DNA of 32,000 nt from contig NZ_CP015137.1 of NCBI RefSeq assembly GCF_001644705.1, positions 4,020,001 through 4,052,000 of the forward strand, read 5' to 3'. Positions 5,247-26,422 of the stretch are shown here, piece by piece. Below the pieces are notes generated by a model, which saw nothing but the letters and a program-made list of their open reading frames with translations, was not told the DNA's origin and searched no databases. The translations under genes and the position numbers were made by a program. The stretch's first letter is position 1. Every line of letters starts with the position of its first letter. The stretch is from Dickeya solani IPO 2222. GTDB lineage: Bacteria; Pseudomonadota; Gammaproteobacteria; Enterobacterales; Enterobacteriaceae.

Positions 5247-5599
5247 TGATTTTACTAAATACAATTTGTTAGTTGTTAAATAACAGGTAATACATAACGT
5301 ATTTCCCCAGCTCGATGGAATAAGATAATCATGGATTATCACGAAATACATTGTTTCGTGAGAGATTGCTGTTTTATTTTGTTTGAAGTGGGGAAATAAA
5401 TTTTTCACTTATCATGAGTACGCCAACACCAGGATTATTAAAAATCAAACGCCATTATCAACATGAGAATATATTGAATTTTTGCGGTTGTTTATTTTGT
5501 CAGGAAAAATAAAACATACCCACCACTGGTATTGTTGAACGTTCGAAAATAGCGGGCGATAAGTATTGTTGTCCGTTTAATAAATAACAGGAACATAAG

Positions 5600-6889
5600 A
5601 TGGATATGACACTAACTACCCGTCCTACGAAACGGCGTTATTTCACCTTGTTGATGATTTTTATTACTGTCGTGATCTGTTATGTGGATCGGGCCAACCT
5701 GGCTGTGGCGTCGGCACATATTCAGAAAGAGTTCGGCATTACAAAAACACAAATGGGCTACATCTTTTCCGCGTTTGCCTGGACCTATACGCTATGCCAA
5801 ATACCCGGCGGCTGGTTTCTTGACCGCGTCGGCTCAAAGGTCACCTATTTTATCGCCATCATGGGATGGTCGATTGCCACGTTACTGCAAGGTTTCGCCA
5901 CGGGGCTGGCGTCGTTGATTGGTTTGCGCGCTGTGACCGGGTTGTTTGAAGCGCCTGCGTTTCCGACGAATAACCGTATGGTGACCAGTTGGTTCCCTGA
6001 GCAAGAACGTGCTTCCGCCGTTGGATTTTATACGTCAGGACAGTTTGTTGGTCTGGCATTCCTTACGCCATTGCTCATCTGGCTGCAGGAAATCCTGAGC
6101 TGGCACTGGGTATTCATTGTCACCGGCGGCATCGGTATTGTCTGGGCAATTATCTGGCACTTTGTTTATCAGCCACCGAAGAAAAGTAAAGGGATCAATC
6201 AGGCCGAGCTGAATTACATTGCTGAAGGCGGCGGTATCGTCGATGGTGATGCGCCGATCGAGAAGAAAGCGCGTACGCCGTTGACGGCAGCCGATTGGAA
6301 ACTGGTGTTTAACCGCAAGCTGGTGGGCGTGTATATCGGGCAGTTTGCCGTAACCTCTACGCTGTGGTTCTTTCTGACGTGGTTCCCTAACTACCTGACA
6401 CAGGAAAAGCATATTAGCACACTGACGGCAGGCTTTATGACGACGGTGCCTTTCCTGGCGGCGTTCGTTGGCGTCTTGCTGTCCGGGTTTGTGGCGGACC
6501 GTCTGGTGCGCAGCGGAAAATCGATCGGTCTGGCGCGTAAAACGCCGATTATCTGTGGCCTGTTGATTTCAACCTGCATCATGGGGGCGAACTACACCAA
6601 CGATCCGGTGTGGATTATGGCGTTGATGGCGCTGGCGTTCTTTGGCAATGGCTTTGCCTCCATCACCTGGTCACTGGTGTCGTCGCTGGCGCCGATTCGC
6701 CTGATTGGTCTGACGGGCGGGGTATTCAACTTTGTCGGTGGTCTGGGGGGTATCACGGTGCCATTGATAATTGGCTATCTGGCGCAGGATTACGGTTTTG
6801 CCCCGGCTCTGACCTACATTGCTTGCGTGGCGCTGGTTGGCGCGTTGTCTTACATCTTACTGGTAGGTGAAGTGAAGCGTGTAGGGTAA
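5600..6889 (+). CDS. dgoT: D-galactonate:H+ symporter (MFS, anion:cation symporter family)
   Basis: [35 protein letters not shown] and the whole length are collinear with E. coli DgoT from memory. The protein is 429 aa and hydrophobic throughout. Confidence 0.94.
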
Positions 6890-6935
6890 CTCTCGTACTC
6901 TCGCGTACGGTAGGGTTTCGGCAAAAGCCATAAAA

Positions 6936-9976: not shown

Positions 9977-10747
9977 TTAAAGGTGATACATCATCCGGGA
10001 TATCGAGGCTGCCAGCCCATCCGGATTATCGTAAGCCAGCATGTGACCACAGTTAGGCACTAACTCAACCAGACATCCAGCTCGTGTGTATCGTTCAATG
10101 TCATCCGGAGAAGCGCTATCGGGCAGAATAACGCCTTTGGCGATCGGCAGACGGGACAATATTTCCAGCCAATTCTTTTGATTATCATCCAGAGTCGACT
10201 CAGCCCATTGATAAATAGCCAGAGGAGAGCTGACCTGAAATGGACCAAGCCAGACATCATTTCCGCCTTCATTTTTAAGCTGCATCACCAGTTGATTAAA
10301 TCCTGTTGCGATAAATTCGCTTTCGCTCATCGCCGTGATGCTTTCAAGCAACGCAATACCATAATCATTCACACCGGGGGTACATAAAATCAGTCGCTCT
10401 GGTTGCGGGGACATGGTTGTGGCCATTTTTAACGCGATAAATGCGCCGGCACTGTGGCCGAACAGGCTGATAGTGGATACCCCTGTACTGGTGATCCAGG
10501 TTTGCAACATGGTTGACAGACTGCCTGAATCATATCGCGCAGTCACAGGCTTATCACTGAACCCTGAACCAGGAAGATCAACCAGCCAGGAGCGGGTACC
10601 GGAATAGTGGGGTGATGTGACTACCGGCAGGTAGTCACTACTGGATGCACAACCGAGGCCATGAATGTAAACAAGAGGAGACGCGCCGGGATGGCAGTCC
10701 AGCCAGCGCAGGAGATTACTCTTTTCATCAAAAGGCCACGTTTCCAT
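9977..10747 (-). CDS. Alpha/beta-fold hydrolase
   Basis: Oxyanion region LVYIHGLG, nucleophile elbow GHSAG, and a C-terminal CGHMLAYDNP (catalytic His). I place the start at ATG 10747 (METWPFDEK...). The 351-aa ORF-track version would overlap the upstream gene by about 265 nt. Confidence 0.85.
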   Translation of the reverse strand: METWPFDEKSNLLRWLDCHPGASPLVYIHGLGCASSSDYLPVVTSPHYSGTRSWLVDLPGSGFSDKPVTARYDSGSLSTMLQTWITSTGVSTISLFGHSAGAFIALKMATTMSPQPERLILCTPGVNDYGIALLESITAMSESEFIATGFNQLVMQLKNEGGNDVWLGPFQVSSPLAIYQWAESTLDDNQKNWLEILSRLPIAKGVILPDSASPDDIERYTRAGCLVELVPNCGHMLAYDNPDGLAASISRMMYHL

Positions 10748-10766
10748 AAATTTTCTTAAACGAACA

Positions 10767-11984
10767 CTATGGAGCGACTGAGACAGTGGATGCCTGTTGA
10801 TGCTCAGGTTTCCCGGCGGGCATTCCGGCGACAACCTGATTACCGATGGCATACACGGCGCACCCGGCGGCGCCTGGGCGCTGCTGGCAGTTTTTAAGTG
10901 CCTGTTTAGCGGCTTCCCGCATAGTTCGCATACCGTATGCCGCGCCCCAGTTACCCTTCGAGTCAGTCGCAAACGCTTTCTCGTAACGCTGACTGACGTC
11001 GTAATAGCTGAAATTCTCACGTCCGGCGGCATTCAGGTGGGCAGGATATGGCAGATGCGTTTCGGGAAGCGCGACAATTTCTTTGAACGGAAGATGCTGC
11101 TGCTCCAGAAACCCGGCTACTTGCTGCCACCAGAAACTTTCCGGTGCACTTTCTATAAACGTGTGCCCGTTTTCTTCGAAAGCAGGCATCAGAATGAATT
11201 CTGCGTTGCCTCCACCACGTTGATACGCATTCAACATCTCTCTGGCCATGTCAGGGGGAAAGAGATGGTCATTCTGGGTGTAAAGCCAGAGCGTAGGAAT
11301 ACGTGCCGCCCGTCCGTACAATTCGAACGCCTTTAATAGCCCTGCTTTATCACAAAATGATTTTCCATCAATCGCGCCTCTTCCCCCGTCAAAACTAATA
11401 ATAGCCTGTACACCTGCCGGATTCACCGCGCTGGTCGCTATGACAGCAAACCCTCCCGCAGACATTCCGGTAAGGATTGCCTTGTCTTGTGATGCCCAGG
11501 GCTGGCGACGGATCGCAGCAAGCGCAGCCGTGATATTATTTTTATCTATTGTTCCTGCTCGCATGTGCCGGGGCTCATTGCAGGAACTCCCTTCACCCTC
11601 CGTCGTTCCGCTTGATTGCCCGTATCCTTGGCGAAGAACGGTGACAGCAGCGTAGCCGTGCCGTGCAAACGCAATAGCTGCAGACGAGAACTGGGTTGGC
11701 GTTGCCATCATGCGGTTAAATACTGGGGAAGAGCTGCCATTTGTTATCAGCACTACGGGCAGTCGACCGGTACTGACGGGACGGGTAACGAATGCATCCA
11801 GCGTTGCTGGTTGACCGTTATCCAGCGTCACTTGCAGTGAAAGGGGTTCCCTTATCAGGCCGGCAAGTTGTTGCCGACTGTCCGATGAAGCGGCTGTCGG
11901 CGCGGCATTTGTCGACGCTGTGAAAACAAGAAAAATGAAAGATAGCGATATTATTCTGAGACAAGCCATGAAGATCTGTTGCAT
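10767..11984 (-). CDS. Exported dienelactone-hydrolase-like alpha/beta hydrolase with an extra Cys-containing C-terminal module
   Basis: Signal peptide (MACLRIISLSFIFLVFTASTNA/AP) and nucleophile elbow GMSAGG. The C-terminal ~90 aa (..KGNWGAAYGMRTMREAAKQALKNCQQRPGAAGCAVYAIGNQVV) resembles, from memory, the DUF4189 type of secreted-protein module. Confidence 0.8.
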   Translation of the reverse strand: MQQIFMACLRIISLSFIFLVFTASTNAAPTAASSDSRQQLAGLIREPLSLQVTLDNGQPATLDAFVTRPVSTGRLPVVLITNGSSSPVFNRMMATPTQFSSAAIAFARHGYAAVTVLRQGYGQSSGTTEGEGSSCNEPRHMRAGTIDKNNITAALAAIRRQPWASQDKAILTGMSAGGFAVIATSAVNPAGVQAIISFDGGRGAIDGKSFCDKAGLLKAFELYGRAARIPTLWLYTQNDHLFPPDMAREMLNAYQRGGGNAEFILMPAFEENGHTFIESAPESFWWQQVAGFLEQQHLPFKEIVALPETHLPYPAHLNAAGRENFSYYDVSQRYEKAFATDSKGNWGAAYGMRTMREAAKQALKNCQQRPGAAGCAVYAIGNQVVAGMPAGKPEHQQASTVSVAP

Positions 11985-12385
11985 CAGTGCTAATCCTTAT
12001 TGGTGAATGTGTAGTGTACAAGTGTTCAAAAAAAAGACTTTTGTGGCTGACTAGTGTTACTAACATAACGAAATGCATCAGGTGCTTAGATACGGCTTCG
12101 TTGAAGTCTGTTGATGATCTCCATGTTCAGATCGCTCGACACAAAAACGAATTTATTGAACGATAAAGTCATAATCGAAAAAGATAAAATCTATTACGCC
12201 AGAATTGGTACCTGCCGATATATCATTTTATAATTGAATTAGGTTTTCGCCTGAGTGATTACTTTTAACGGTGGAGATTGTTGCTAATTATTACCCTCGA
12301 AAAGAAATGCATTCAGGGGGAATTTATGAATGTGGCCTCATCTCTAAAAAATTGAAAAGATACCTATGAATTACAGCACTGAGGG

Positions 12386-12673
12386 TCATCCTCTGTGTGC
12401 ATGGCGATGATGAGCAGGATTGCATTCTTGATTCGTTCCTGGCAGATAATATTTTCCATCGGAAGAGGGCGTTGTTCCTCCAGGGCAACCGTTCATGCCG
12501 GGTTTCCCATTTTTACCGCCCGGAAGTCCAGCCCCTCCGGCCTGACTAACAGAAACCAACAAAGTGCCTTTTGTTTCACCTCTATTTTGGCTGACGATAT
12601 CGTCGTGAGCAGCATAGGTCATAGAGGAAAATCCGCAGGTAACTAAATAAATAAAAACCATTGTTTTATTCAT
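12386..12673 (-). CDS. Small exported Gly/Pro-rich hypothetical protein
   Basis: A 95-aa ORF with a clear signal peptide (MNKTMVFIYLVTCGFSSMTYA/AH) followed by GGAGLPGGKNGKPGMNGCPGG. I recognise no homolog. Confidence 0.5.
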   Translation of the reverse strand: MNKTMVFIYLVTCGFSSMTYAAHDDIVSQNRGETKGTLLVSVSQAGGAGLPGGKNGKPGMNGCPGGTTPSSDGKYYLPGTNQECNPAHHRHAHRG

Positions 12674-13069
12674 ATCCTACCTTTTACGTTTTCGACGTCA
12701 TCGACGGATAGTTATTAAGTCTAGCTACAGTTCAATAATTTTCATCTCTCTTCACTGACAAGTGATTCTTGGATCGTCATCTTTCTTTCACATTATTTTA
12801 CTATCAGGTACCTGAGTATAAGATGAATCACTGCCGTGCTGCTGATAAGCATCTGAACATAGAGTCGGGCAGATATCATTACATTCATTATTTCAAAATA
12901 TTATCTTTATTGACAAATAACCTACAAGCACAACCTTCTGACTATCGCCATGAAAATCTGGAGTACCTTATTTAATATAATAGAATAGAGGGAATGATAA
13001 AATAAAATTATCATTCCCGGTGCGAACGTTAGCATATTTAATTAATGAAATATCAATTTAGTACCTAAT

Positions 13070-13442
13070 GTCTTGGGGCACCAGGTAAGTGTCAAGATAG
13101 TTGGCACCTCCCGGTTGATTAGGCAGCTCACTTTTCTCGTTCTGGATCCAGCATTACCGCGCCTTCCGGTTGCCAGTTTCTTATTTTTCCCGACCAACGT
13201 GCTGGCCGTTCTGTTTTTACCTTTCTGTACGCTTCATTGTTACGCCCCCATTGGTCATTAGCATTTTTGATGGGTGGTAACAACTATCCTGACAGAGGGG
13301 CTTTTCAGTTGATACGATATTTAAGATATCATAGACGTCAACTGCCCGGATTAACCAACAGGTACAGACCTTGGGAATCTGAAAATTTGAAGGGCTTTGC
13401 AGATGGTTTTAAGTTGCGGATTTTTGAGTCGTTAAGAGACAT
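13070..13442 (-). pseudogene. P4-type (DUF4102-containing) tyrosine integrase, degraded N-terminal remnant
   Basis: The minus strand from ATG 13442 reads MSLNDSKIRNLKPSAKPFKFSDSQGLYLLVNPGS*, which is the hallmark N-terminus of P4-like island integrases. After the stop, similarity continues in another frame (..YRIN*KAPLSG*LLPPIKNANDQW..) with further stops. No catalytic domain follows. The left limit is approximate. Confidence 0.75.
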
Positions 13443-13560
13443 TTGGGGGTCACTCCGTCATCGAACCAGCCTGACTCCAAATCTGACCACCAAATTCTCC
13501 CGATGCAGAGGGAAACTGAAAATGCATCGGGAAGGGTTTTCACACTATCATGTTAGATAT

Positions 13561-13597
13561 AAAAGCAAAAAGCAGATGCCTTTCGACATCTGCTTTT
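13561..13597 (-). terminator. Rho-independent terminator immediately 3' of the tRNA-Asn-derived repeat (probably the native tRNA terminator)
   Basis: AGCAGATG (13571-13578) pairs with CATCTGCT (13587-13594) around an 8-nt loop. On the minus strand it is followed by TTTTTGCTTTT, and a T-run also follows on the plus strand. Confidence 0.7.
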
Positions 13598-13604
13598 CTG
13601 AATC

Positions 13605-13620
13605 TGGCTCCTCTGACTGG
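13605..13620 (-). repeat. 16-nt copy of the 3' end of tRNA-Asn (att-type direct repeat marking the distal ICE boundary)
   Basis: The minus strand reads CCAGTCAGAGGAGCCA, identical to the last 16 nt of enterobacterial tRNA-Asn (...GGTTCGAGTCCAGTCAGAGGAGCCA) as I remember it. The adjacent 60 nt do not encode the rest of a tRNA, so this is a repeat and not a gene. Confidence 0.75.
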
Positions 13621-14123
13621 GATCGCCTTTGCCAATAATTGGCTAATAAGTAAGCTAAATCAGAATCCACTTCCTGTCAAGACCACCAGAATGACCACCA
13701 TTTGATTGAATGTCGAATGAGATCTAATTATCTTAACAAGGTAACCCTTTGATTTATGGATTGGGAATTCCGAAAAACAAAGAGGGTGTTTTAATAAAAA
13801 CTTGATAAATAATGGTTTTTTTTGATTTCACAAAGAGATCTTAGGTAAATACTTCACTAAACGAGCATTTTATTGATAGCAACTATTTGAAATAGTTTGG
13901 GGCTTAGAAACAGCGGAGGCTCTCTGTGTAACACAAGATACCCGCCAGATGAACAGCTATTGTTTTTAATTGCATGTTTTTTAAATGATTTTCTCGCCAT
14001 GTGACATCCTCAGGTTCGATCATAAAGTTTGGTCTAAATGATTTTCTTGAGTAGAATAAGAAGAACTATTCTTGTCAACTTTATGTCATTGAATAACAAT
14101 TAGTTAGGTTGTGTATGTGACGA

Positions 14124-15200
14124 ATGGATACTAAATTGATTGCAATAGATTTCTTTTGTGGATGTGGGGGAGCTAGCGAAGGGCTACGTCAGGCCGGTTT
14201 TGACATTGTTCTTGGCATTGATGTAGATCAGCAGGCCTCAGAAACATACAAAGCTAACTTCCCTGATGCTGATTTCATCTTCGATGATATCAGAAATGTA
14301 ACTGTTGAAAGGGTTGCGAACTCTATAGCATTCAAAAGTGCAGATGGTTTGCTTTTAAGTGCCTGCGCCCCTTGCCAGCCTTTCTCACAGCAAAACAAAT
14401 ATAAAAACAAAGATGATGAAAGGATTTGTCTACTAGACGAAACTCACCGCTTCGTTTCAAGACTTTTACCAGAATATATTTTATTAGAAAATGTTCCAGG
14501 TATACAGAAAATTGATGGCAGTAAAGAAAGTCCTTTCACAAGATTTATTTCTTTGCTTGATAAGCTAAACTATCACTATGTGTATTTTGTGGCAAATGCT
14601 GAAAAATATGGCGTACCGCAAAGAAGAAAACGGTTTGTTCTTCTGGCCAGTCTGCTAGGACCAATATCAATACCAGAGCCAACTCATGATATAGAAAATT
14701 CACCTGTAAAAACAGTTAGAGAATTTATTGGTGAATATCCAAAACTTGCATCGGGAGAAGTCGATAAAAATGATGAACTACATCGTTCGGCGATCCTAAC
14801 TGAGTTGAATTTAGAGAGAATAAAAAATACCCCAGAAGGAGGGGATCGCAGGGACTGGCCGACCAATTTAATCAACACTTGTCACAAAGATTATACTGGC
14901 CATACAGATACCTATGGCAGAATGTCATGGGATAAACCTGCTCCGACTTTGACAACAAAGTGCAATAGTTATTCGAATGGACGCTTTGGTCACCCAGATA
15001 TAACACAAAATCGAGCTATAAGTATTAGAGAAGCTTCTCGACTACAAACATTTCCAAAAAAATATATATTTAAAGGTTCTTTTAATTCGATGGCGAAACA
15101 AATTGGAAATGCTGTCCCTTGTGAGTTAGCTCGACAATTTGGTCTGCACTTCATTGAGCATAATGAGGCTTCAAAGAGAGATAATCATGGCAAATTTTAA
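14124..15200 (+). CDS. DNA (cytosine-5)-methyltransferase
   Basis: All key C5-MTase motifs are present in order: I FFCGCGGASEG, IV SACAPCQPFS (catalytic Cys), VI LLENVPG, VIII QRRKRFVLLAS, and X GNAVP. A variable target-recognition region lies between VIII and X. Confidence 0.93.
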   Translation: MDTKLIAIDFFCGCGGASEGLRQAGFDIVLGIDVDQQASETYKANFPDADFIFDDIRNVTVERVANSIAFKSADGLLLSACAPCQPFSQQNKYKNKDDERICLLDETHRFVSRLLPEYILLENVPGIQKIDGSKESPFTRFISLLDKLNYHYVYFVANAEKYGVPQRRKRFVLLASLLGPISIPEPTHDIENSPVKTVREFIGEYPKLASGEVDKNDELHRSAILTELNLERIKNTPEGGDRRDWPTNLINTCHKDYTGHTDTYGRMSWDKPAPTLTTKCNSYSNGRFGHPDITQNRAISIREASRLQTFPKKYIFKGSFNSMAKQIGNAVPCELARQFGLHFIEHNEASKRDNHGKF

Positions 15201-18162
15201 GACAAGAGCTAGAACCTTAGACTTATTAGGCCGACAACAGATTGCGGGCATCCCTACGGCCATAAATGAGCTATTAAAAAATGCTCATGATGCTTATGCT
15301 GATCATGTTGATATAGATTATTTCCGTAGGAAAAGCCTTTTTATTATCAGAGATGATGGCGTAGGTATGTCAAGAACTGACTTTGAAAATAGATGGCTTA
15401 CATTAGGTACTGAGTCGAAAGTTCAACATACAAACGCATCTCTTCCCCCAGTAGATGAATCTAAAAAATTTAGACATCAGATGGGGGAGAAAGGTATAGG
15501 TCGCCTCGCTATAGCCTCAATAGGTAAACAGGTATTAATAATAACCAAGGCTAAAAACACTAATGAGATAACGGCTGCATTTATTAATTGGCAAATATTT
15601 GAACTTCCTGGGTTGAATTTAGATGATATCGTTGTTCCGACCAAAACATTTAAACAAATTCCAGATGTCGATCAAGTAAACTCTATGAAGTCTGAGTTGC
15701 TAGATTCAGTCGATATTTTATTCAGTAAAGATTCTTTAAGTGAAAAAAAATACTTAGAAATAAAAGAAACTATAACATCCTTTTCTATTTGCCCAAAAAC
15801 GCTGAGCAAAAAATTAATTCGGTTTAGCTCCTTTGATAGTAATGATTCAGGAGGTACGATCTTTATCATTTCTCCCGTTGATGAAATTCTGAATTCAGAT
15901 ATCGATGGTGATGGTAATGATAAAGAGGCTACAAAAATAGAAAAAATGTTGATGGGTTTTCATAATACAATGACGATATGTCATCCTGAACCTTTGTTAG
16001 ATATCGTATTCAGAGATTATAGAAGTAATGATGATACTTATATTGATATTATTGACAAAGAGCACTTTTTCACTAGTGAGGATTTTGAACAAGCAGATCA
16101 TCATTTTCATGGGTTTTTTGACGAATATGGGCAGTTTAAAGGTAACATAAGAATTTATCATGATAAAAACTTTGAACATATAGTCAATTGGACTGGGAAT
16201 AACCTAAATCTTACCAGTTGTGGTCCATTTGAAATAAACCTTGCTTATGTTCAGGGTGATAGAAAACATTCAATAATGGCTAATGAAGATTATGCCCGAG
16301 TTACATCCAAATCAGATAAATTTGGTGGTTTATATATTTATAAAGATAATATTAGAATTTTACCTTATGGTGATTCTGATTATGATTATCTGGAAATTGA
16401 AAAAAGACGATCTAAACATGCTGGTTCTGCTTTCTTTTCGTATAGGAGGATGTTTGGAGTTATAAGTCTTTCGCAAAATGAAAATTTTAGATTAAAAGAA
16501 AAAGCTGGGCGTGAAGGGTTTATTGAAGATCAAGCATACAAACATCTCAGAGATATTCTTAAGAACTTCTTTATCCAACTGGCTGCTGATTTTTTCCGAG
16601 ATGATATAAAAGCGGGCCCAAAAGCAGAAATTTGGGCGACAAAAAGAAATGAGTTAGTGTCTTCTCACAAAGCATTAGAGAAACGAGAAAAGCAAGCTAA
16701 GCTAAAAAAAGCTAAATTTGAATCTGCTCTTAGCTATTTCTTTGAACATCATTCAAATGGATTAATTGAACAAGATATAAATAATATTCTGACAGAAAGT
16801 GAGCATAAATTTCACAGCGTATACTCAATTAAGGACCCTGACATAGCTAGTCAGAAAATAATTGATGTTGAATCTCAGACTAGAGAAGAGATTAATGCAT
16901 ATAAACGCTCTATTATTGTTCCCACCCCTAGGGGATTTTTAATTAGAGGAGAGCTGAAAGAAGATTATAATACATATCTAACGACCTTGCAGGAGTTAGA
17001 GAGTACATGTTTTCAGCCAGCCATCGACAAAATAGATCAATTGGTTGATAAAGCAATTAATGATTATCAAATAAAAATAAGCAAACGTAAGCGTCTAGAA
17101 CAGGCGGTTGATTTTATTTCTATTGAAGCTAGAAAAGTTAACGCTGAAAAAAGAAAAAGCACGGAACAAGTTGTTCTGGATATAAACAAAAGAGTTAAAG
17201 AGTTAACATCAGATTTAATGATTGATCTTGATAATCAAATTCGCATTGTAAAAGACAAATTTAAACACATATCTATAGAAAGTGAATCTGATATTGACTT
17301 GGTCGCTAAACGAAATGAATTAGCAGCAGAAATTACTAATGTTAGCGAAAGGAATACAAGCATTTTAGATACTATAATCAGACAACTAGAGGGGGTTTAC
17401 TGGGAGAAAGATGAAGATAATAATTATATAACCAGTGAACAAATAACCGAAGTGCTTGGTGAAGAAGTTGATGCTTTGAGAGAAAAAATTCATGCTGATG
17501 TTGAGTTGAGTCAGCTTGGTTTAGCTGTAAGTATCATTCATCATGAATTCAATAGTACTGTTAGATCGATAAGAACTAGTCTTAAAGATTTGAAGGCCTG
17601 GAGCGATGTCAATGAAGATCTTGAAGGTGTCTATAAAAACATTAAGATTAACTTCGAACATTTAGACGGTTATCTCAATCTCTTTACCCCGTTAAATAGA
17701 AGATTACAGAGGAAAAGAGAAGAAATTAAACTTCTTGAAATCAAATCATTCTTAATCGATTTGTTTAAAAATAGAATGGATAGGCATAATATATCATTCA
17801 AACATACAAATGGATATTCAAAGGGGAAACTTTATGGTTTCCGTTCATCCTTTTATCCAGTTTTCGTAAACGTAATCGATAATGCAATATATTGGCTCAA
17901 TGAAAGTAATAGTAGCGACAAAACTATAAGATTACACGCCGATGATAACGGCAATGTCTATATATCTAATAATGGACCTATCGTCGATCATCGTGATAAA
18001 GACAGAATATTTAGCCTAGGCTTTTCAAGAAAATATAATGGTCGAGGAATGGGGTTGCATATCAGCAATGAAGTTCTGGAATCTATAGGTTATAAATTGA
18101 CGCTAGATGAACCAAGAGAGGGTTCAACTGTTACATTTAAAATTTCCATGGTGGAAAAATAA
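15187..18162 (+). CDS. 991-aa dual-module ATPase: N-terminal MORC/Hsp90/MutL-like GHKL ATPase, a K/E-rich helical linker, and a C-terminal histidine-kinase-like module
   Basis: N-terminal Bergerat motifs: E28-x3-N32-x2-D35 (NELLKNAHDA), D56-x-G58-x-G60 (DDGVGM) and G100-EK-G103-I-G105 (GEKGIGRL). The C-terminal part has an H-box-like IIH785-H786-EFNSTVRSI, an N-box VNVIDNAIYW, a degenerate G1 (ISNNGP) and a G2 box G952-R-G-M-G-L. ATG 15187 follows GAGAG and overlaps the MTase stop by 14 nt. The ORF-track start at 15139 is less likely. Confidence 0.85.
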   Translation: MANFKTRARTLDLLGRQQIAGIPTAINELLKNAHDAYADHVDIDYFRRKSLFIIRDDGVGMSRTDFENRWLTLGTESKVQHTNASLPPVDESKKFRHQMGEKGIGRLAIASIGKQVLIITKAKNTNEITAAFINWQIFELPGLNLDDIVVPTKTFKQIPDVDQVNSMKSELLDSVDILFSKDSLSEKKYLEIKETITSFSICPKTLSKKLIRFSSFDSNDSGGTIFIISPVDEILNSDIDGDGNDKEATKIEKMLMGFHNTMTICHPEPLLDIVFRDYRSNDDTYIDIIDKEHFFTSEDFEQADHHFHGFFDEYGQFKGNIRIYHDKNFEHIVNWTGNNLNLTSCGPFEINLAYVQGDRKHSIMANEDYARVTSKSDKFGGLYIYKDNIRILPYGDSDYDYLEIEKRRSKHAGSAFFSYRRMFGVISLSQNENFRLKEKAGREGFIEDQAYKHLRDILKNFFIQLAADFFRDDIKAGPKAEIWATKRNELVSSHKALEKREKQAKLKKAKFESALSYFFEHHSNGLIEQDINNILTESEHKFHSVYSIKDPDIASQKIIDVESQTREEINAYKRSIIVPTPRGFLIRGELKEDYNTYLTTLQELESTCFQPAIDKIDQLVDKAINDYQIKISKRKRLEQAVDFISIEARKVNAEKRKSTEQVVLDINKRVKELTSDLMIDLDNQIRIVKDKFKHISIESESDIDLVAKRNELAAEITNVSERNTSILDTIIRQLEGVYWEKDEDNNYITSEQITEVLGEEVDALREKIHADVELSQLGLAVSIIHHEFNSTVRSIRTSLKDLKAWSDVNEDLEGVYKNIKINFEHLDGYLNLFTPLNRRLQRKREEIKLLEIKSFLIDLFKNRMDRHNISFKHTNGYSKGKLYGFRSSFYPVFVNVIDNAIYWLNESNSSDKTIRLHADDNGNVYISNNGPIVDHRDKDRIFSLGFSRKYNGRGMGLHISNEVLESIGYKLTLDEPREGSTVTFKISMVEK

Positions 18163-18163
18163 A

Positions 18164-19813
18164 ATGAAAACATTCAATGAATTTTCAACAGCAGTTACAG
18201 ATCATTTTATTCAGAATGTTATCTTCATTGATGATAAAGCATATAATAAAAATGGTCCAAAAGATCAGCACGAATTTGATGCACAAGAAGTCACAAAAAT
18301 ATTTTCTAAGAAGGGAAAAATTTGTGCTGTCTATAAGCCTCAGTTAGTTAGTGATCTAGAATACTTAACTTCAATTGCGAACAAGTCTGATGTAACAATA
18401 CTTGATTGGCAAATAGTGCTTGATGAGGAACCAGCTGAAGGTGGTTCACAAAATGATGAGGAAGATGCTGAGGAGGATGATGTAAGAGGTGTGTACACGA
18501 AGAAAATTATCACATCTCTTCTTGGTGATATTGATAATCAACACTGTATAAAATTGATCCTCATTTATACTGGTGAGGTCGATCTCCCTAAAATTGCATC
18601 AGAAATTAATTCGGCATTGACTGAAAAGAACATTTCTGGTTTCAGTATTAATCAAGATGATCCATGCACTGTTATGTCTAACAATTGTAAAATCATGGTC
18701 ATATCAAAAGCGAATGGAGGAGTCGGCCGAGCCCAACATTTACCACAATTGGCTAATAAAACAAAAAGTTATGAAGAATTACCTGATTTCATATCATTAC
18801 AATTTACGGAAATGACAAGTGGGTTATTGTCTAATTTCGCAATGGAATCTCTTGCAGAAATTAGAAAGAACTTTCATCATATTTTGACTCTCTTTTCTAA
18901 GGAGTTAGATGCAGCTTATTTAGCACATCAAACTTTGTTACCTAACACTTTTGATGCAAATGAACTGTTAGTCCAGCTGTTGAGCGATACCTTTTCATCA
19001 ATTATTAGATACAAGAATCTAAATCAATTTTTAAATGAGGACAAAGTTAAATTATGGCTTGATCATAATATTGAAGATGGAGTAAAACCATTCTATAAGG
19101 ACGATGGTACTCAAGACAATGTTTTTTACCAAAGAAACGCGGATATATTATTGAGATTATTACGTTCTGATTCTGATGTTAATAACAAATTTACTAGTTC
19201 TTTAATTAGCAGTGATGGGCAACAACTATCAACAAAAAAAATCGGTATTCTAATAAAAAAATATGCCACAACCTTGTTTGCAGAATTTGATAAGACAGAG
19301 GAAATTAATAAAAATTTTGCAAAGTTATGCTACCACCGAAGTGCAATTTTTTCGCCTCACCACCTCCCATTTTTATCACTAGGTACGGTTGTTAAAAGTA
19401 CTCTCGATAATGGGGGTTACTATATTTGCATTCAACAAAGATGTGATTCCGTCAGAATTCAAGAGGGAGAGATGCGTCGTTTTCTTTTTATTTCATTAGA
19501 AGAGGTTAATGATGGTGGTTTTAACTTTTTAACCCCTAATGGTATTAAACTTAAAATTGATAAGTCTACATATTCTCTACGAACAGTTAAGTTCTCGGGA
19601 ACTAATGGTTTCGCTCTTGCAACAAAATGTGAAATTGATAGCAAAAAATATTTTGAACCATCTTATTACTCCAAGGGAAAAGAACATTCCGAGAGGTTTG
19701 AGTTTATTATTGAGCTGAAAGAACTATACGCTCAGCGCATAGTTGAGGAATATAGCTCAAGTCTATCTCGTGTAGGTTTAGATGAACCTGAATGGGTTAG
19801 ACGGTTGAACTAG
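18164..19813 (+). CDS. 549-aa protein: receiver (REC)-like N-terminal domain plus an unassigned C-terminal domain
   Basis: ATG 18164 lies 1 nt after the upstream stop. Alternating beta/alpha propensity carries REC-like landmark residues in the canonical order: VIFID23-D24, DVTILD81W, LILIYT136G and MVISK182. An acidic insert (EEPAEGGSQNDEEDAEEDD) follows D81. I recognise no motif in the C-terminal ~350 aa. Confidence 0.8.
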   Translation: MKTFNEFSTAVTDHFIQNVIFIDDKAYNKNGPKDQHEFDAQEVTKIFSKKGKICAVYKPQLVSDLEYLTSIANKSDVTILDWQIVLDEEPAEGGSQNDEEDAEEDDVRGVYTKKIITSLLGDIDNQHCIKLILIYTGEVDLPKIASEINSALTEKNISGFSINQDDPCTVMSNNCKIMVISKANGGVGRAQHLPQLANKTKSYEELPDFISLQFTEMTSGLLSNFAMESLAEIRKNFHHILTLFSKELDAAYLAHQTLLPNTFDANELLVQLLSDTFSSIIRYKNLNQFLNEDKVKLWLDHNIEDGVKPFYKDDGTQDNVFYQRNADILLRLLRSDSDVNNKFTSSLISSDGQQLSTKKIGILIKKYATTLFAEFDKTEEINKNFAKLCYHRSAIFSPHHLPFLSLGTVVKSTLDNGGYYICIQQRCDSVRIQEGEMRRFLFISLEEVNDGGFNFLTPNGIKLKIDKSTYSLRTVKFSGTNGFALATKCEIDSKKYFEPSYYSKGKEHSERFEFIIELKELYAQRIVEEYSSSLSRVGLDEPEWVRRLN

Positions 19814-20173: not shown

Positions 20174-20932
20174 TCAATCTTTATCTTCAATCTTTCCCAT
20201 GATTGCACTGATAAATGCGGTGTGCGGTTGCATATTTAATTCTGATGACATTAAATCCGCCATACGATCAATCAATCCATCATGAGTCGGATGTTTGAAT
20301 GGAAAGATGTCGCCATCTTGGAAAAATTTCCCAGCAGCTATACGCTTAATGGTAGCCGTATCGACCGCTTCGATATCTTTACTTAAAATCCTTAATTTCT
20401 CTGCATCAGGTATATCTACAACATCAATGTATCCATCAGGTAATCCAAGCGCTCTGGTTACATCATCCCAATTATATCCTAAGGAAGTTTTTCCTTCGAT
20501 TGTAAAAGCTTGGGCTGGGAAAGACGCGAATGGGAAGGCTTCTTGGCATTTCAATAATAAAGTTGCTAATTTCATTAATTGCTCTGAATAGCATTCACGA
20601 ATATCCCTTTCTTTCAGTTCAGGGGGAACTTTTTGTGATTAACCAACAAAACGATATGTACATAAAGCATTTGGCAGAAACCCGCCAAAATAAGATACAG
20701 GTCCCTCTTTTTGCGTTAAATTTCTTAATTCCACAAAAAAATGCATACTCAGATCAGATTTCATTTCTGATTGTTGAAGTCCATACCACGTTGAAAACCC
20801 ATCTACCCCTGACATAGCCTTTTGGAGGACAAACGTCACACTACGGCTAGCAGAAAGAAAAGCATTTAGTACAAACTGGAATTCTAAACCATCTAAGTTT
20901 ATTGAACGCTTAAAGAAATATTCCGCTTCCAT
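20174..20932 (-). pseudogene. Hypothetical ~252-codon gene interrupted by a single in-frame TAA
   Basis: ORFs 20639..20932 and 20174..20575 are in the same frame. The only interruption is TAA at 20639-20641 (..TYRFVG*SQKVPPELKERDIRECYSEQLMKLATLL..). The region is AT-rich like the neighbouring operon. I recognise no homolog. Confidence 0.55.
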
Positions 20933-21322
20933 AAGCTTTTCAACAGGATGACGTAAACTCGTGAAAATATGTGCTATTTTGTATCTCTACGATCTGAAGG
21001 TAATAATAAGATATATGACATATGAATATTTTATCATAGCTCATTACAAAAACAGAGTTCACATTATTACGTAGTAAGTAATTGAAACCCAATTTCACCA
21101 CTGCAAAGTAAGGGGCGCTACATCCCGTTATGCAGGGTCAGTTTTTTCTCCCACGTGCTTTCCGTTCCTCGTATCTCTTCCGGTTAATCGTTTCCCAACA
21201 CAACCCGTCTCGCAAGGGTAAATGGCACGCATTCTGCGCCCTTGCGCGCCGGAACGATGCCGGGAAAGCGAACCGTCAGGCGATACGAAGACGAAAATCA
21301 CACCACTGACGGAGAAAAAACC

Positions 21323-22267
21323 ATGACGATTTCCCTGCATACCCAGACTAGCGCCCCTAACACCGCAGCGGCGACCAGCGTATCCCCGCTGGACCCGTCA
21401 GGCTCCTCAAAAACGAAATTTTCCAAAACCAAAACCGATATCTACCAGACTGTCACCGACAGCATCATCACCGCGTTGGAGGCCGGCGTGAAGCCCTGGA
21501 CGTGTCCGTGGCAGCGTGTGCCGGGCATGTCCGGTTTACCTTCCAACTTCGCAACCGGCATCGCGTATAGCGGAATGAATATCATGCTGTTGTGGTGCAG
21601 TGCATCAGAGCAGGGCTTCGGTGATTCACGCTGGATGACCTACAAACAGGCGCAGGCAGTAGGCGGGCAGGTTCGCAAAGGCGAGCACGGCACGACCGCC
21701 ATTTTTTATACAACCCTGGAAAAAGAAAACGAAGACGGCGAAGTCGACCAGATCCCGATGCTGAAAACGTTCACCGTGTTCAATGTTGAACAAATTGACG
21801 GCCTTCCCCTGAATACCGAAGCTGTCAGCCCCGCTGAGACGTTCGAGCCGTTACCACAGGCTGAAAACCTGTTGCGCCGCAGTGGTGCCCGCATCGTAGA
21901 GAAAGGTCAAAATGCCTTCTTCAAACCGTCAACTGATGAAATCTGGTTGCCGGAGCGCCATCTTTTTTCCGATGCCGCTAATTTCTACGCTACCGGTCTG
22001 CATGAACTGGTTCACTGGAGCGGAGCAAAAACACGTCTTAACCGTGTAATGAAAGGGAAGTTTGGTAGTGAAGGTTACGCCTTTGAAGAGTTGATCGCTG
22101 AGTTGGGAAGCGCGTTCTTGATGGCGGATCTGGGGATCGTTGGCGAGGTTCAGCATGAAAGCTATATCGCTTCCTGGCTGAAAGCATTGAAGAACGACAA
22201 GCGCTATATTTTCAAAGCGGCCAGTGCAGCATCGAAAGCGCACCGTTATCTAATGGATAAGGTTTGA
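21323..22267 (+). CDS. ardC: ArdC-type antirestriction protein (N-terminal ssDNA-binding domain plus C-terminal zincin metalloprotease)
   Basis: N-terminal ArdC/DUF1738 pattern (VKPWTCPW...PSNFATGIAYSGMNIMLLW...RWMTYKQAQAVGGQVRKGEHGTTAIFY). C-terminal HExxH (LHELVHWSG) with FGSEGYAFEELIAELGSAFL. ATG 21323 lies 8 nt after GGAG. The ORF-track start at 21242 is a TTG. Confidence 0.88.
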   Translation: MTISLHTQTSAPNTAAATSVSPLDPSGSSKTKFSKTKTDIYQTVTDSIITALEAGVKPWTCPWQRVPGMSGLPSNFATGIAYSGMNIMLLWCSASEQGFGDSRWMTYKQAQAVGGQVRKGEHGTTAIFYTTLEKENEDGEVDQIPMLKTFTVFNVEQIDGLPLNTEAVSPAETFEPLPQAENLLRRSGARIVEKGQNAFFKPSTDEIWLPERHLFSDAANFYATGLHELVHWSGAKTRLNRVMKGKFGSEGYAFEELIAELGSAFLMADLGIVGEVQHESYIASWLKALKNDKRYIFKAASAASKAHRYLMDKV

Positions 22268-22826: not shown

Positions 22827-23141
22827 ATGCAATTCACCGTATACGGTAATACCGGGAAAAGCGCTGTTTACCCGCTGTTGCTCGATGTCACAAGCGATAT
22901 TATTGGGCAGTTGAATCGCCGGATAGTGATCCCGTTGCTCCCTGTTGAAAAGTATCCGGCAGGCCGCCGACCAGATCGTCTTGTCCCCGTCGTCAGGCTG
23001 ACGGACGGCAAAGAGTACGCCGTAATGACGCACGAGCTGGCAAGTATCCCTGTGCAGGCACTGGGGGCGGTGTTTTGTGATGCGTCTCAGTATCGTACTC
23101 AGGTAAAGGCCGCAATAGATTTCCTCATCGACGGCATTTAG
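22827..23141 (+). CDS. ccdB: CcdB-family gyrase-poisoning toxin
   Basis: MQFTVY....LLLDVTSDII....RRIVIPLL........P.V......Y.VMTHELASIPV..LG......IDFLIDGI is collinear with F-plasmid CcdB (MQFKVY..LFVDVQSDIID..RRMVIPL...MTTDMASVPV...INLMFWGI) from memory. The protein is 104 aa and starts 2 nt after ccdA. Confidence 0.9.
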   Translation: MQFTVYGNTGKSAVYPLLLDVTSDIIGQLNRRIVIPLLPVEKYPAGRRPDRLVPVVRLTDGKEYAVMTHELASIPVQALGAVFCDASQYRTQVKAAIDFLIDGI

Positions 23142-23395: not shown

Positions 23396-23570
23396 CTGAG
23401 GTTAGATATGGCGCCCCGTGTGTCGTGTATCCACCGTGAACGAAGACAGGGATGAAGCCGAGGATAAACATCGGAAGGCAGAACCGATTCCTGCATCGTA
23501 TACATTACAAAAAATACGCAAAAAAGCCCAATATGTAACGTTTACGATACAATTATATGCCGTGTATACA

Positions 23571-24881
23571 TCACCAATTTATCCTGAGTGATTCCCATAC
23601 ACTATCAATCAGTGTTTTTGGTACTCCCTCATCTTCAGCATATTCTCGCCAGCCAGACACAATTTTTATGGTTTCATTAATAATGTTTTTCGCTTTACTT
23701 GGGCGAAGGCTGGTTATCTGGGTTGCGACGGAAAGAAGGTCATTGATCTGAAAATTATCTCGTTTTCCAGCTAACGTAAGTTGATGAGCATTAACCCATG
23801 GAGAATCGGCCTTGTAACTCCATGCTACATCGAACGCAGGGGCTAGTGTCCACTTATATTCATCGTTAACCATGAACGACCAGTTCTTAGTATGATCATC
23901 ATGATTGCGCGCAACGACATTGAATACCATGCGACGATATATTTGTTCTTGCTCTTTATTGGACAATCCTAACTGCCGACACACTGCGAGTAGCTCCTCA
24001 TAGCTGAAGGCACCAGGCTTCCTGAAATCAGCATGAGCTATACCGCACAAACTTAGAACATGGTATTTCTGGTTATTAACTCGGTCAAAACGCCTCGTCA
24101 TAAAATGAGCTCTATCGGAGTTCCTCTCGCGTAATAATTCGCACTCTGACATTACAATACCCGCATCCCTAGCCATAAGGTAATACACGTATTCCATTAC
24201 ACCATACCCTTTAGGGTCACCGAACGTCTCCTTATCCGATTTATGCTCTTGTACTCCATCAAACTTGAGAAGGTAATGCTCAAAACCATCAGGGGCGTCA
24301 ACCTGCCCAGAACGTATCTCTGATCTGTCAGCATTAACGGCCACAACAGCTTTCGCCCTTGCCCCGCCGGCAGAAGTACCTATCTGAAGCAACTTAGCCA
24401 TGGATGATTCTTCATAATCATTAAGCTGAAGTTTATCTCGAGAATCTAAGACTTTCTGAGCCATTGTTACAAGCTCACCGATTAAAATTGGTTGGCTATC
24501 AACTTCCTGGTTGTTGTTAGTCGGCTGATATTCAAGCGCACCCATTCCGCGTGATCCAGTATAGAGCAAACGATCCAACGCTAAAAATTGTGATTTATCC
24601 TGACCGCTCCTTGCTAACCAAGCATTGATTAATGAGTTACCGAAATCGTCAGGCAGTGAATCGGCAAAAACTGCAGGCAATCCCTTATACGTCTCGAAAG
24701 CCAGAGCAGAGAAAGTAAACGTTTGATTACTTAATGGTAAATAGATTGGCGAAAGACTAAACCCTTCAGACTGCCATTCTTCCGTATATTCGAAAGTAGC
24801 AAAACCGCTATCATCGAGATATGCCAAATACCCAACTGGAATACTATCAAAGAGAACGTTGCAAGCTCTAGTTATCATCAT
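23571..24881 (-). CDS. hipA: HipA-family Ser/Thr kinase toxin
   Basis: Full-length at 436 aa. N-terminal HipA coupling domain (GYLAY..., LPDDFGN), and catalytic region NHDDHTKNWSF followed by LAPAFDV. The 4-nt overlap (ATGA) with the upstream HTH gene is as in hipBA. Confidence 0.92.
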   Translation of the reverse strand: MMITRACNVLFDSIPVGYLAYLDDSGFATFEYTEEWQSEGFSLSPIYLPLSNQTFTFSALAFETYKGLPAVFADSLPDDFGNSLINAWLARSGQDKSQFLALDRLLYTGSRGMGALEYQPTNNNQEVDSQPILIGELVTMAQKVLDSRDKLQLNDYEESSMAKLLQIGTSAGGARAKAVVAVNADRSEIRSGQVDAPDGFEHYLLKFDGVQEHKSDKETFGDPKGYGVMEYVYYLMARDAGIVMSECELLRERNSDRAHFMTRRFDRVNNQKYHVLSLCGIAHADFRKPGAFSYEELLAVCRQLGLSNKEQEQIYRRMVFNVVARNHDDHTKNWSFMVNDEYKWTLAPAFDVAWSYKADSPWVNAHQLTLAGKRDNFQINDLLSVATQITSLRPSKAKNIINETIKIVSGWREYAEDEGVPKTLIDSVWESLRINW

Positions 24882-25285
24882 TCAACCTTAAATTTTTTCC
24901 GGTTCGCGAGCATGGCTCTAACACCATTCTGAGAAAATGTTTTTGCATTTGAAGAATTTGTTACTCGGTAATGTGCATTACCGGCAACTCCGCTGCTATG
25001 TCGAACCTTTCTTTTTGAATTGTACGCGATAATGTCTGACGGTCGCATTGTTGGCTCAGGCACTAAGGCATCAAGCCCCTCAAGCAAATTTAGCTGTCGA
25101 AGCACCGCTATAAAGGTGCTGAAGCTACACGTTCCTTTTTCTAGCCTTGCATATGTCGGCCTGCTTATGCCGAGACTATCCACCAGTGCCTCCTGTGAAA
25201 TGCCCCTGGCTTGTCGATATACTTCAAGCCGTCTAAACAACTCTTTATTGATGGCAAAATCAGTCATTGTTTTGGTTATTTTCAT
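24878..25285 (-). CDS. hipB: HipB-like XRE-family antitoxin/repressor with a long C-terminal extension
   Basis: HTH segment (LEVYRQARGISQEALVDSLGISRPTYARLEKG) directly upstream of hipA and coupled to it. It is 135 aa from ATG 25285, which is preceded by GGGGGT. The C-terminal ~60 aa have no obvious counterpart in the 88-aa E. coli HipB. Confidence 0.85.
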   Translation of the reverse strand: MKITKTMTDFAINKELFRRLEVYRQARGISQEALVDSLGISRPTYARLEKGTCSFSTFIAVLRQLNLLEGLDALVPEPTMRPSDIIAYNSKRKVRHSSGVAGNAHYRVTNSSNAKTFSQNGVRAMLANRKKFKVE

Positions 25286-25297
25286 AGGTACCCCCAA

Positions 25298-25356
25298 TTG
25301 TAACGTATACGTGCTATTTTAGCATGAAATCGTCAGATTTGTAACGTATACGATAC
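25298..25356. promoter_or_regulatory. Two direct copies of TTGTAACGTATACG in the hipBA leader/promoter (putative HipB operator)
   Basis: Identical 14-mers at 25298-25311 and 25339-25352, with starts 41 bp apart. Each contains the palindrome CGTATACG. They lie immediately upstream of the hipB start. Confidence 0.6.
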
Positions 25357-25667
25357 GGAAAGCATGTTGACATTTATGTACGTTATTGCGGGTCTGTCAC
25401 GTTAGTAGTTTGCACATAATTCCGTGTAATCTTGCACGCTGGTACAGCGACAAAATGGAAGATGTAAGCGCGGGTGTAAGTCTCCCTATAAACCGGACCT
25501 GAGTCGCCATTATTTTGGTAGCCATCCTGTCGCTGGCTAATCTGACCAGATTCCATATTGATTAATAAATCATGGTATTCACTGGTTTTTTTCACCTGAG
25601 AAAACAATTACGAACTTCCGTTCCTCGCTCTTAACCGACCATGAGATTTGGCAACGCCAGATCCAGC

Positions 25668-26414
25668 TTATGAATATTGCCCCAGCTCCAGTTGTTGCAA
25701 TTCGGCAAGCGTATAAATACGAAAAACATTCCGATGTCGTACTTCCAGCGGGATAGGTTGATGGTTAACGATAACGTGTTTGATGCTGGCGAACAGTAGT
25801 TCAAGAGCACGTTTTTTCTGCGGGTCCGGCACGATATAGAAAACGTACATCCAGTGTTTGTGAGTACGGGCCAACAGGTGGCTGGCGATAATCGACTGGT
25901 AGCGGGCTTTGGTTTTCAGGCGGCGCTCGGTTTCTACCGCAATGACCTGTCCGCCAGGGAGGGTGATGAGTCCATCCGGGCGGTGTTTGACCTGATATTG
26001 GCTGAGGAAGGTTGAGCGATCACCGTTTATCCAGCCGGTAGCGCCTTTTTTCTCCAGAATAAGCCGGGCTGCCTGATTATCGAGATGATGCTCTAACGTC
26101 CAGCCGGTAATTCTGGACGGTTCAAACCGTGCCGGGAAAATATCGTCATTGGGTTTTACTACCAGCGCTAACCCGTCACTGGTGATCCCCCACAAAGAAA
26201 TTTTCCCCGTGCGGGTATCAAATTCATGTTTTTGTACCCATCCCATTTTGATGGCTTTGGCAAGCAACAGATAAAGAGGTTTGTGATTTTTAAAATCAAA
26301 AAGCAGCATCAGTGTTTTAAAGTCACTGTAGGTTTCTTCTTTCAGGAAATTCAGCAGTATCTTTATTTTCTCGTTATTACGCCTGTGGCGCTCACGATAT
26401 GTTGATATCAACAT
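25668..26414 (-). CDS. Replication-relaxation-family-like protein (position of MobC in ICEKp-type elements): winged-helix N-terminus plus a nuclease-like core
   Basis: A 248-aa protein directly downstream of the coupling-protein gene. The N-terminal region (KPLYLLLAKAIKMGWVQK) looks like a wHTH. The C-terminal HRPDGLITLPGGQVIAVETERRLK resembles the PD...E.E..K core seen in replication-relaxation proteins (from memory). Confidence 0.6.
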   Translation of the reverse strand: MLISTYRERHRRNNEKIKILLNFLKEETYSDFKTLMLLFDFKNHKPLYLLLAKAIKMGWVQKHEFDTRTGKISLWGITSDGLALVVKPNDDIFPARFEPSRITGWTLEHHLDNQAARLILEKKGATGWINGDRSTFLSQYQVKHRPDGLITLPGGQVIAVETERRLKTKARYQSIIASHLLARTHKHWMYVFYIVPDPQKKRALELLFASIKHVIVNHQPIPLEVRHRNVFRIYTLAELQQLELGQYS

Positions 26415-26422
26415 GTCTTCTC

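Follow-up and report, generated by a model that had tools for sequence, protein, structure and literature searches.

A MORC/MutL-class ATPase fused to a histidine-kinase core in a mobile methylase-kinase-receiver operon of Dickeya solani

What could a single cytoplasmic protein do with two different Bergerat-fold ATPase modules, one of the class found in MORC and MutL proteins and the other of the class found in histidine kinases? This question is raised by an open reading frame (ORF) at positions 15187-18162 of a 32,000-nucleotide (nt) stretch of Dickeya solani IPO 2222 DNA (contig NZ_CP015137.1, positions 4,020,001 to 4,052,000 of the forward strand), hereafter referred to as the window, in whose numbering the coordinates of this locus are given. 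The encoded polypeptide, which we call the kinase, joins an intact MORC/MutL-class GHKL-plus-S5-like module to a complete HisKA-type core through a helical linker, and the gene that follows it codes for a receiver domain in which all phospho-acceptor residues are intact, fused to an orphan output region of 350 amino acids (aa). With moderate confidence, we favour the reading that this protein serves as sensor kinase in a mobile module of three genes which behaves like a restriction-modification (R-M) or defence/addiction cassette, and whose restriction arm is gated by a His-Asp phosphorelay.

The ORF is real and its product has 991 aa. Its longest reading starts at TTG 15139, and ATG 15187 is preferred as the start because the homologues open with MAxFKTRAR. 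The regions of the kinase are as follows:

15187..15606, + strand: aa 1-140, GHKL ATPase domain of the MORC/MutL class, its N-terminal arm conserved (HATPase_c_3)
15607..16620, + strand: aa 141-478, conserved alpha/beta region with extra conserved charged sites (AlphaFold2 (AF2) secondary structure, Foldseek)
16621..17421, + strand: aa 479-745, linker of six long helices, rich in lysine and glutamate (K/E; K+E content, AF2)
17422..17712, + strand: aa 746-842, DHp helical hairpin, with HEF_HK at aa 776-842 (Pfam HEF_HK)
17713..18162, + strand: aa 843-991 and stop codon, histidine-kinase-type CA domain (Pfam HATPase_c)

Three Pfam domains were recovered in the kinase with scores far above the curated cut-offs, namely HATPase_c_3 at aa 24-136 (E 2.3e-17, 63.7 bits vs a cut-off of 25), HEF_HK (PF19191) at aa 776-842 (E 7.4e-29, 100.5 bits vs 24.1), whose match takes in all 67 model positions, and HATPase_c at aa 890-987 (E 2e-17, 64 bits vs 26.4). 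A monomer model was built with AF2 from 18 homologues, and it is of modest to low confidence (pLDDT 65, pTM 0.37); its layout comprises a GHKL domain at 1-135, a mixed alpha/beta region at 150-470, six long helices at 479-737, a DHp hairpin at 750-830 and a CA domain at 845-988. Searched against the PDB with Foldseek, this model returned two separate sets of matches, each with probability 1.00, one consisting of histidine-kinase cores (HK853, ZraS, CpxA and the ThkA CA domain) and the other of the ATPase modules of MORC2 (9cdj) and SMCHD1 (6mw7), the latter over ~500 columns. Thus, profile and structure searches agree with the initial annotation, made from the sequence before this analysis, in which two different Bergerat-fold modules rather than just one ATPase fold had been recognized in a single chain, the N-terminal one MORC/MutL/Hsp90-like and the C-terminal one sensor-kinase-like; the two-module observation is correct, far beyond chance. 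The chain was also described there as having no transmembrane segment, and none was found in this soluble protein, the maximum of the Kyte-Doolittle profile over 19-aa windows being 1.14; any input to the kinase must therefore be cytoplasmic, as had been stated.

The N-terminal domain carries the ExxxNxxD (E28, N32, D35), DxGxG (D56, G58, G60) and GxxGxG (G100, G103, G105) motifs previously read from the sequence, and all nine residues were present in 71/71 loci each. These and the following conservation counts refer to 71 diverse loci reaching 40% identity, archaea included. Position 120 is T or S across the same loci, and the four GHKL ATP-binding motifs of the MORC family are present. Residues 1-140 constitute the most conserved region of the kinase (mean pairwise identity 0.70), and the 95% conservation of its first 30 residues is consistent with an N-terminal strap. 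Weak sequence matches of this domain in the PDB were to MORC2, PMS2 and MutL. Among the NCBIfam models, the best-scoring one for the N-terminal 120 aa was that of the BbrUII/HgiDII restriction enzymes (NF050001), with a match spanning just model positions 8-121 of 659; since its 73 bits lie far under the cut-off of 550, the kinase is not a member of the BbrUII/HgiDII family.

Residues 141-478 are strongly conserved as well, with a K+E content of 14% and twelve charged or histidine positions kept in 71/71 loci each (D304, H305, K375, R390, D400, E405, R408, R420, E438, K439, R442 and E443). Judging from the model, this region is probably the S5/transducer-like half of the N-terminal ATPase module. 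When the S5 fold was tested, the alignment to MORC2 and SMCHD1 extended over ~500 columns with probability 1.00, but with a TM-score of 0.33 relative to the target, and the pLDDT of the model is 40-80 there. An exact match to the MORC-specific S5 motif GhXhhpXXRhl is lacking, as GLYIYKDNIRIL carries one extra residue; in the nearest stretch, G381-LYIYKDNI-R390-IL, three residues and not two lie between the polar position and the arginine. Because of this departure from the MORC motif, the kinase is considered paraMORC-like and not a MORC proper. The middle region also contains the strings ADHH and PYGDSDYD, which resemble nuclease/Toprim motifs, and from which no claim is drawn.

A K/E-rich coiled coil of ~400 aa had been proposed between the two modules. 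This proposal is overstated, as the linker is not one long coiled coil: residues 479-745 are helical and enriched in K+E (22%, vs 12-15% elsewhere in the kinase), whereas residues 141-478 are the mixed alpha/beta region described above, and heptad periodicity was limited to a few helices. The 3.5-residue hydrophobic periodicity of each helix was compared with 500 shuffles, being clearest in helices 705-737 and 750-808 (0 and 7 of 500 shuffles), weaker in helices 526-547 and 810-830 (about 15-17 of 500), and not beyond shuffles in the four other helices of 479-693. Considering where periodicity beats the shuffles, the last linker helix (705-737) resembles a signalling helix that runs into DHp, and the rest of the linker resembles a helical bundle. 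The linker is the least conserved region of the kinase (mean identity 0.34).

Is the C-terminal half a true kinase? Its H-box, IIHHEFNS, is present at 17533-17556, one codon upstream of the 17536-17559 given in the initial annotation. The conservation of the HHEF histidines held for just one of them, H785 being His in 41, Asn in 24 and Gln in 6 of the 71 loci, while H786, E787 and F788 occur in 71/71 each. H786 is universal, unlike H785, and is therefore the predicted phospho-acceptor (codon 17542-17544); furthermore, it aligns with the phospho-histidines of ThkA and YycG. The N-box VIDNAIYW (aa 896-903) and the G2 box GRGMGL (aa 952-957) were found as described, and N895, D898, N899, G930, G952, G954 and G956 are likewise kept in 71/71 loci each. 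The G1 box, at aa 928-931, does read NNGP instead of DxGxG (N928-N-G930-P-I, without the Asp and the second Gly), which had left it in doubt whether the module is a kinase or a pseudokinase. Under the latter alternative, the N-terminal ATPase would be the sole active module, the C-terminal half serving as a pseudokinase or dimerisation scaffold, and the receiver domain encoded downstream, which is divergent and bears long loop insertions, would be structural and never phosphorylated. Nevertheless, the degenerate G1 box is part of a family-wide alternation, with Asn at position 928 in 54 of the 71 loci and the canonical Asp in the other 17, and with the second Gly present in 19/71. Further, the catalytic domain of ThkA, the best relative in the PDB (profile match with E 5e-10; Foldseek TM-score to the CA domain 0.74, normalised to target), aligns N-S-G-P-P at G1 and was crystallised with ADP-Mg (3a0t). 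Taken together, the invariance of the remaining nucleotide-binding residues, the Asn/Asp alternation and the ThkA precedent argue against a pseudokinase; purifying selection at every catalytic position would be unexpected for a scaffold, and the residues expected of a working receiver are kept in the partner protein, as detailed below. We thus regard this alternative as highly improbable, the least probable of those weighed in this work.

The gene that follows the kinase starts at ATG 18164, the mechanical ORF that opens at 18107 being too long. Its 549-aa product, the receiver protein, comprises two parts:

18164..18763, + strand: aa 1-200, divergent receiver (REC-like) domain (Response_reg_2)
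18764..19813, + strand: aa 201-549, orphan output region: one helical and one beta-rich domain, then the conserved C-terminal tail SRVGLDExEWxRR

The first part matches Response_reg_2 (PF19192) with E 1.5e-35 and 123 bits. Its AF2 model displays a (beta-alpha)5 fold, with D23/D24 after beta1, D81 after beta3, T136 after beta4 and K182 after beta5, and these five residues are kept in 69-71 of the 71 loci. Directly after the phospho-acceptor D81, the model contains a highly acidic inserted loop of low confidence, WQIVLDEEPAEGGSQNDEEDAEEDDVRG (aa 82-109, window 18407-18490), in which E99, D101, D106, R108 and G109 are conserved in closer relatives, and which is shorter in distant ones.

The output region carries its own set of conserved polar residues, namely D249, C422, C427, D428, R431, (E/D)517, K519, R536 and E543, together with an invariant C-terminal tail. 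D249, C422, C427 and D428 are kept in 71/71 loci each, an acidic residue (E or D) occupies position 517 in 66 of 71, and K519 is retained in 67 of 71. In sequence terms, this set hints at a catalytic or metal site, which we put forward as a candidate. An exhaustive profile search retrieved 1570 representative relatives of the output region after clustering at 50% identity; the best 150 of these 1570 all displayed the receiver-plus-output layout, and no informative fusion was found among those 150. Several candidate folds were tried and set aside. The caspase, flavodoxin and SDR matches returned by Foldseek for the receiver protein were discounted because they reflect the generic three-layer fold of its receiver half. 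A HEPN assignment, raised by a homologue labelled JGI YutE/DUF86 and by an R234-x3/4-H pattern, was rejected, as the His is not conserved and no HEPN family was matched. A PD-(D/E)xK site would use the conserved D428 and (E/D)517-x-K519, but these lie 89 residues and five strands apart, and no restriction-endonuclease fold was matched; it was kept as a candidate only.

The initial annotation had not recognized the fusion as a standard architecture. On this point it was mistaken, since the combination HATPase_c_3, HEF_HK and HATPase_c is the published "group 1" and its domains are in Pfam (PMC8011034). HEF_HK (PF19191) and Response_reg_2 (PF19192) were defined by Bellieny-Rabelo, Pretorius and Moleleki (2021, Genome Biol Evol; PMC8011034), who reported group 1 as the predominant architecture (174/222 HEF_HK proteins), adjacency of HEF_HK genes to Response_reg_2 genes in 91.6% of 644 regions, an upstream C5 methylase, an enrichment in R-M domains and an absence of membrane segments, and in whose dataset Dickeya solani was included; our kinase and receiver protein are 100% identical to proteins of that species. 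The same authors related the family to the paraMORC ATPases that Iyer et al. described in 2008 (PMC8011034; PMC2292703). That study was computational and speaks of bacteria only; it proposes R-M control, names no effector and gives the receiver protein no further domain (PMC8011034). Our locus is the same thing as this HEF_HK/Response_reg_2 system, with a group 1 chain, a Response_reg_2 gene after it, a C5 methylase before it and no membrane segment (PMC8011034). It is a typical member of a published and catalogued family, the fusion and the operon partnership being already known, and the discovery value is accordingly small. What the present analysis adds to the 2021 description is the probable S5-like middle region, the Asn/Asp alternation at G1, the identification of H786 and not H785 as the universal histidine, the archaeal members, the Cys/Asp/Lys set of the output region and the minimal, self-contained triad.

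The first gene of the operon completes this triad:

14124..15200, + strand: C-5 cytosine DNA methyltransferase (DNA_methylase PF00145, E 9e-60; TIGR00675 dcm)

The methylase and kinase genes overlap by 14 nt, and a gap of 1 nt separates the stop codon of the kinase from the start of the receiver gene. Promoter-like sites in the operon were fewer than in shuffles, so that a scan for promoters and terminators was uninformative. In order to explore how the three genes travel, one genome per species was surveyed; at least 521 carriers were found, and the best 80 were analysed. The order methylase-kinase-receiver was kept in 76/80 loci, and the receiver protein was present in 79/80. Full-length triads were identified in archaea (Methanoperedens, Methanosarcina(ceae) and Halobacteriota; loci L046, L050, L052 and L062) and in Saccharibacteria/Patescibacteria (L020, L079), and members from enterobacteria and Bacteroidota share 60% identity. 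The identity matrices of the kinase and the receiver protein are correlated (rho 0.84), and DHp and REC retain a partial correlation of 0.47 when the CA domain is controlled for. The three genes are coupled in translation, inherited together across archaea and bacterial phyla, and carried on mobile elements. Other genes accompany the triad as follows:

Vsr, on either side of the triad: 44/80 loci
AAA_15/21 ATPase: 11/80 loci
HNH_2 nuclease: 7/80 loci
none of Vsr, HNH_2 or AAA by the probes used: 28/80 loci

Around 17 of the 28 loci in the last group are flanked on each side by 4 kb of sequence or more. Given these 28 loci, the core of the system is the triad, with no separate nuclease being obligatory. 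No nuclease domain was found in the kinase, in the receiver protein or in the neighbouring ORFs of the window, and the system therefore does not qualify as a classical type II R-M system. In some loci, accessory genes lie between the receiver gene and Vsr, encoding a ~595-aa AAA_15/AAA_21 (OLD/ABC-like) ATPase, a ~250-aa HNH_2 nuclease, a NOV_C restriction-fold protein or a DUF6602 protein (L017 10653-12437, L039, L048; L043 10819-11583, L033, L079, L072; L030 6409-7242; L026 10636-11469).

The surroundings of the triad in D. solani and elsewhere are those of mobile DNA. Its guanine-plus-cytosine (GC) content is 32-38%, vs ~50% around it, and downstream of it the window contains:

21242-22267, + strand: ArdC anti-restriction protein (ArdcN and zincin peptidase)
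22827-23141, + strand: CcdB toxin
about 23500-32000: type IV secretion, coupling-protein and MobC genes

This region is ~81% identical to chromosomal conjugative elements of E. coli, and a 98%-identical copy of the triad occurs in the same element of an E. coli genome (L086). With ArdC, CcdB and the type IV secretion genes adjoining it, the triad appears as cargo beside the anti-restriction gene of an integrative conjugative element. Other carriers display different contexts: in V. cholerae the triad sits on an integrase island, in P. gingivalis on a conjugative transposon that also has AbiE, in Yersinia on a P4-like island next to hsdR, and in E. coli NN5 on a tRNA-Leu island together with type I R-M genes. 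The latter strain provided the single match, at 75%, among complete E. coli genomes; in it, IS903B splits the receiver gene (L001 11935-13495) and an IS3 element cuts the methylase region, indicating that the system has decayed there.

Some further observations concern the window itself. Its GC content drops from ~50% to 32-40% between 12000 and 21000, and the interval 12000-14100, in which no ORF with a family match was found, may be the edge of the acquired segment. At 20174-20932 on the - strand, two adjacent ORFs (133 and 97 aa) match, with 94% and 96% identity, the two halves of a single 267-aa gene that is intact in the same conjugative element (L086 12006-12809; Pfam Phage_lambda_Ea47), and this stretch hence looks like a disrupted pseudogene. 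Two alpha/beta-hydrolase ORFs of 351 and 405 aa at 9977-11984 (- strand) overlap by ~265 nt in different frames; they are two genes whose starts were set wrongly, or else a single frameshifted gene. Positions 1900-6900 hold dgoK, dgoA and dgoD-like galactonate genes, only ~75% identical to those of E. coli, as would fit the chromosome of an enterobacterium other than E. coli.

The frequency of Vsr beside the triad brings up a second alternative, in which the system would belong to a pathway for damage and repair of 5-methylcytosine, with the MutL-like module working with Vsr on the T:G mismatches left by deamination of the sites that the methylase modifies, and the kinase-receiver pair signalling or coordinating repair instead of immunity. 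In E. coli, MutL and Vsr are known to interact functionally (cited in PMC2292703), and the weak sequence similarity of the N-terminal domain to MutL and PMS2 would fit. However, Vsr accompanies C5 methylases generally and is absent here and in 36/80 loci; it flanks the triad now on one side, now on the other, and so is not tied to any one partner gene, and the mobile-element and defence-island contexts would be left unexplained. We therefore consider a repair function very unlikely.

Returning to the favoured reading of a phosphorelay-gated cassette, a sequence of events may be outlined from these elements. The N-terminal ATPase module would occupy the sensor position. Reasoning from MutL, MORC and GyrB, its input would be ATP-driven dimerisation of the N-termini, probably around DNA or along it. 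The linker would relay this input through its last helix (705-737), which is heptad-periodic like DHp helix 1, and the signal arriving there would switch the autophosphorylation of H786. The phosphoryl group would then move from H786 to D81 of the receiver, releasing the output domain. The methylase would mark self DNA, and unmodified incoming DNA or loss of the module would trigger the relay. A bolder version of this proposal, which we regard as tentative and rather doubtful, is that the triad represents a new mechanistic class of restriction-like immunity, a "two-component restriction" in which a MORC-type clamp would detect unmethylated or incoming DNA and signal by His-Asp phosphotransfer to a receiver-gated effector of new fold and chemistry; C422, C427, D428, (E/D)517 and K519 would be the candidate active site of such an effector.

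Parts of this scheme have precedents among known systems. The cytoplasmic kinase of Detocs, reportedly described by Rousset et al. in 2023, is said to sense infection and, by phosphotransfer to a receiver domain, to activate a fused effector; Detocs reportedly differs in having another sensor, an extra phosphotransfer "buffer" protein, a nucleoside phosphorylase effector and no methylase. The HisKA-class kinases (Thermotoga HK853, ThkA/TM1359 and YycG/WalK) share with our kinase the DHp His followed by Glu, the N-box, the G2 box and the CA fold. Unlike them, the kinase has no membrane, PAS, HAMP or GAF input and bears a second GHKL ATPase at the input position, its DHp belongs to a Pfam family of its own (HEF_HK), and its G1 box is usually NxG and not DxGxG. 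The prokaryotic MORC/paraMORC GHKL-S5 ATPases (Iyer, Abhiman and Aravind, 2008) resemble it in having an N-terminal GHKL domain that keeps every ATP-binding motif, with an S5-type region after it, which in our kinase is a probable one, in their links to cytosine methylases, Vsr and HNH genes, and in their lateral mobility; as described in 2008, however, paraMORC1-5 have no histidine-kinase core, and carry C-terminal nuclease, TIR or unknown domains, or have helicase partners. Among GHKL-nuclease fusions, the GHKL-Shedu protein VcSduA (paraMORC3) is a proven defence protein that needs both its ATPase Glu and its nuclease Lys (PMC12137116), and in Bifidobacterium breve BbrUII functions as an R-M system (PMC5829577). 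VcSduA and BbrUII/HgiDII likewise place a MORC-like GHKL ATPase at the N-terminus of a protein acting against foreign DNA, but they carry the nuclease in the same chain, where our protein has a kinase core, its presumed effector being the separate receiver protein.

Several results weigh against a phosphorelay-gated restriction or defence cassette. The methylase is co-inherited more loosely than the kinase-receiver pair (rho 0.56 vs 0.84), and when pairwise-identity matrices were compared by region, no region of the kinase or the receiver protein covaried with the target-recognition region of the methylase beyond phylogeny (partial correlations <=0.23), so that there is no pointer to which component reads DNA sequence or methylation. 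Because the confidence of the AF2 kinase monomer is low, the domain arrangement and the clamping of DNA are inferences only. None of the families of PADLOC-DB 2.0.0 matched the kinase or the receiver protein (0 families), the methylase matching generic MTase models only, and no experimental study was found in the later literature on HEF_HK, Response_reg_2 or paraMORC. The output region had no match in Pfam (E up to 10 on two sub-fragments; 39 diverse members), none in a PDB profile search and no significant one by Foldseek in PDB or BFVD; with Pfam, PDB-sequence and Foldseek searches, no nuclease or toxin fold was found in it.

An output region without a recognisable enzyme fold would also fit a third alternative, close to the R-M control and NTP (nucleoside triphosphate) sensing proposed in PMC8011034, namely a purely regulatory two-component system. 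There, the kinase would sense a cytoplasmic cue such as nucleotide pools or the state of DNA, and the receiver protein would be a DNA-binding regulator tuning when and how strongly the methylase and unlinked restriction genes are expressed, like a controller (C) protein; the HNH_2 and NOV_C nucleases and the AAA_15/21 ATPases that some loci carry beside the triad might be the effectors under its control. Nonetheless, neither a helix-turn-helix nor any other DNA-binding domain was detected in the receiver protein with Pfam, and the invariant Cys, Asp and Lys of its output region are more typical of a catalytic site. Moreover, the 28/80 loci without an accessory gene by our probes, with a triad that moves self-contained between unrelated mobile elements, speak against it, and a 991-aa ATPase-kinase would be a heavy investment for one methylase. 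On this balance, a purely regulatory system appears unlikely, and a phosphorelay-gated R-M or defence/addiction cassette remains the reading we prefer.

The output domain of the receiver protein is the main puzzle of this system, which is attractive as a target of study, being a large family that is mobile and conserved across phyla. If "two-component restriction" proves true, it would be common to many bacterial phyla and to archaea. The system could show whether His-Asp phosphorelays gate a restriction-like response, as well as how the cycle of a MORC/MutL-type ATPase is coupled to an output, a matter that also bears on the MORC proteins of eukaryotes.

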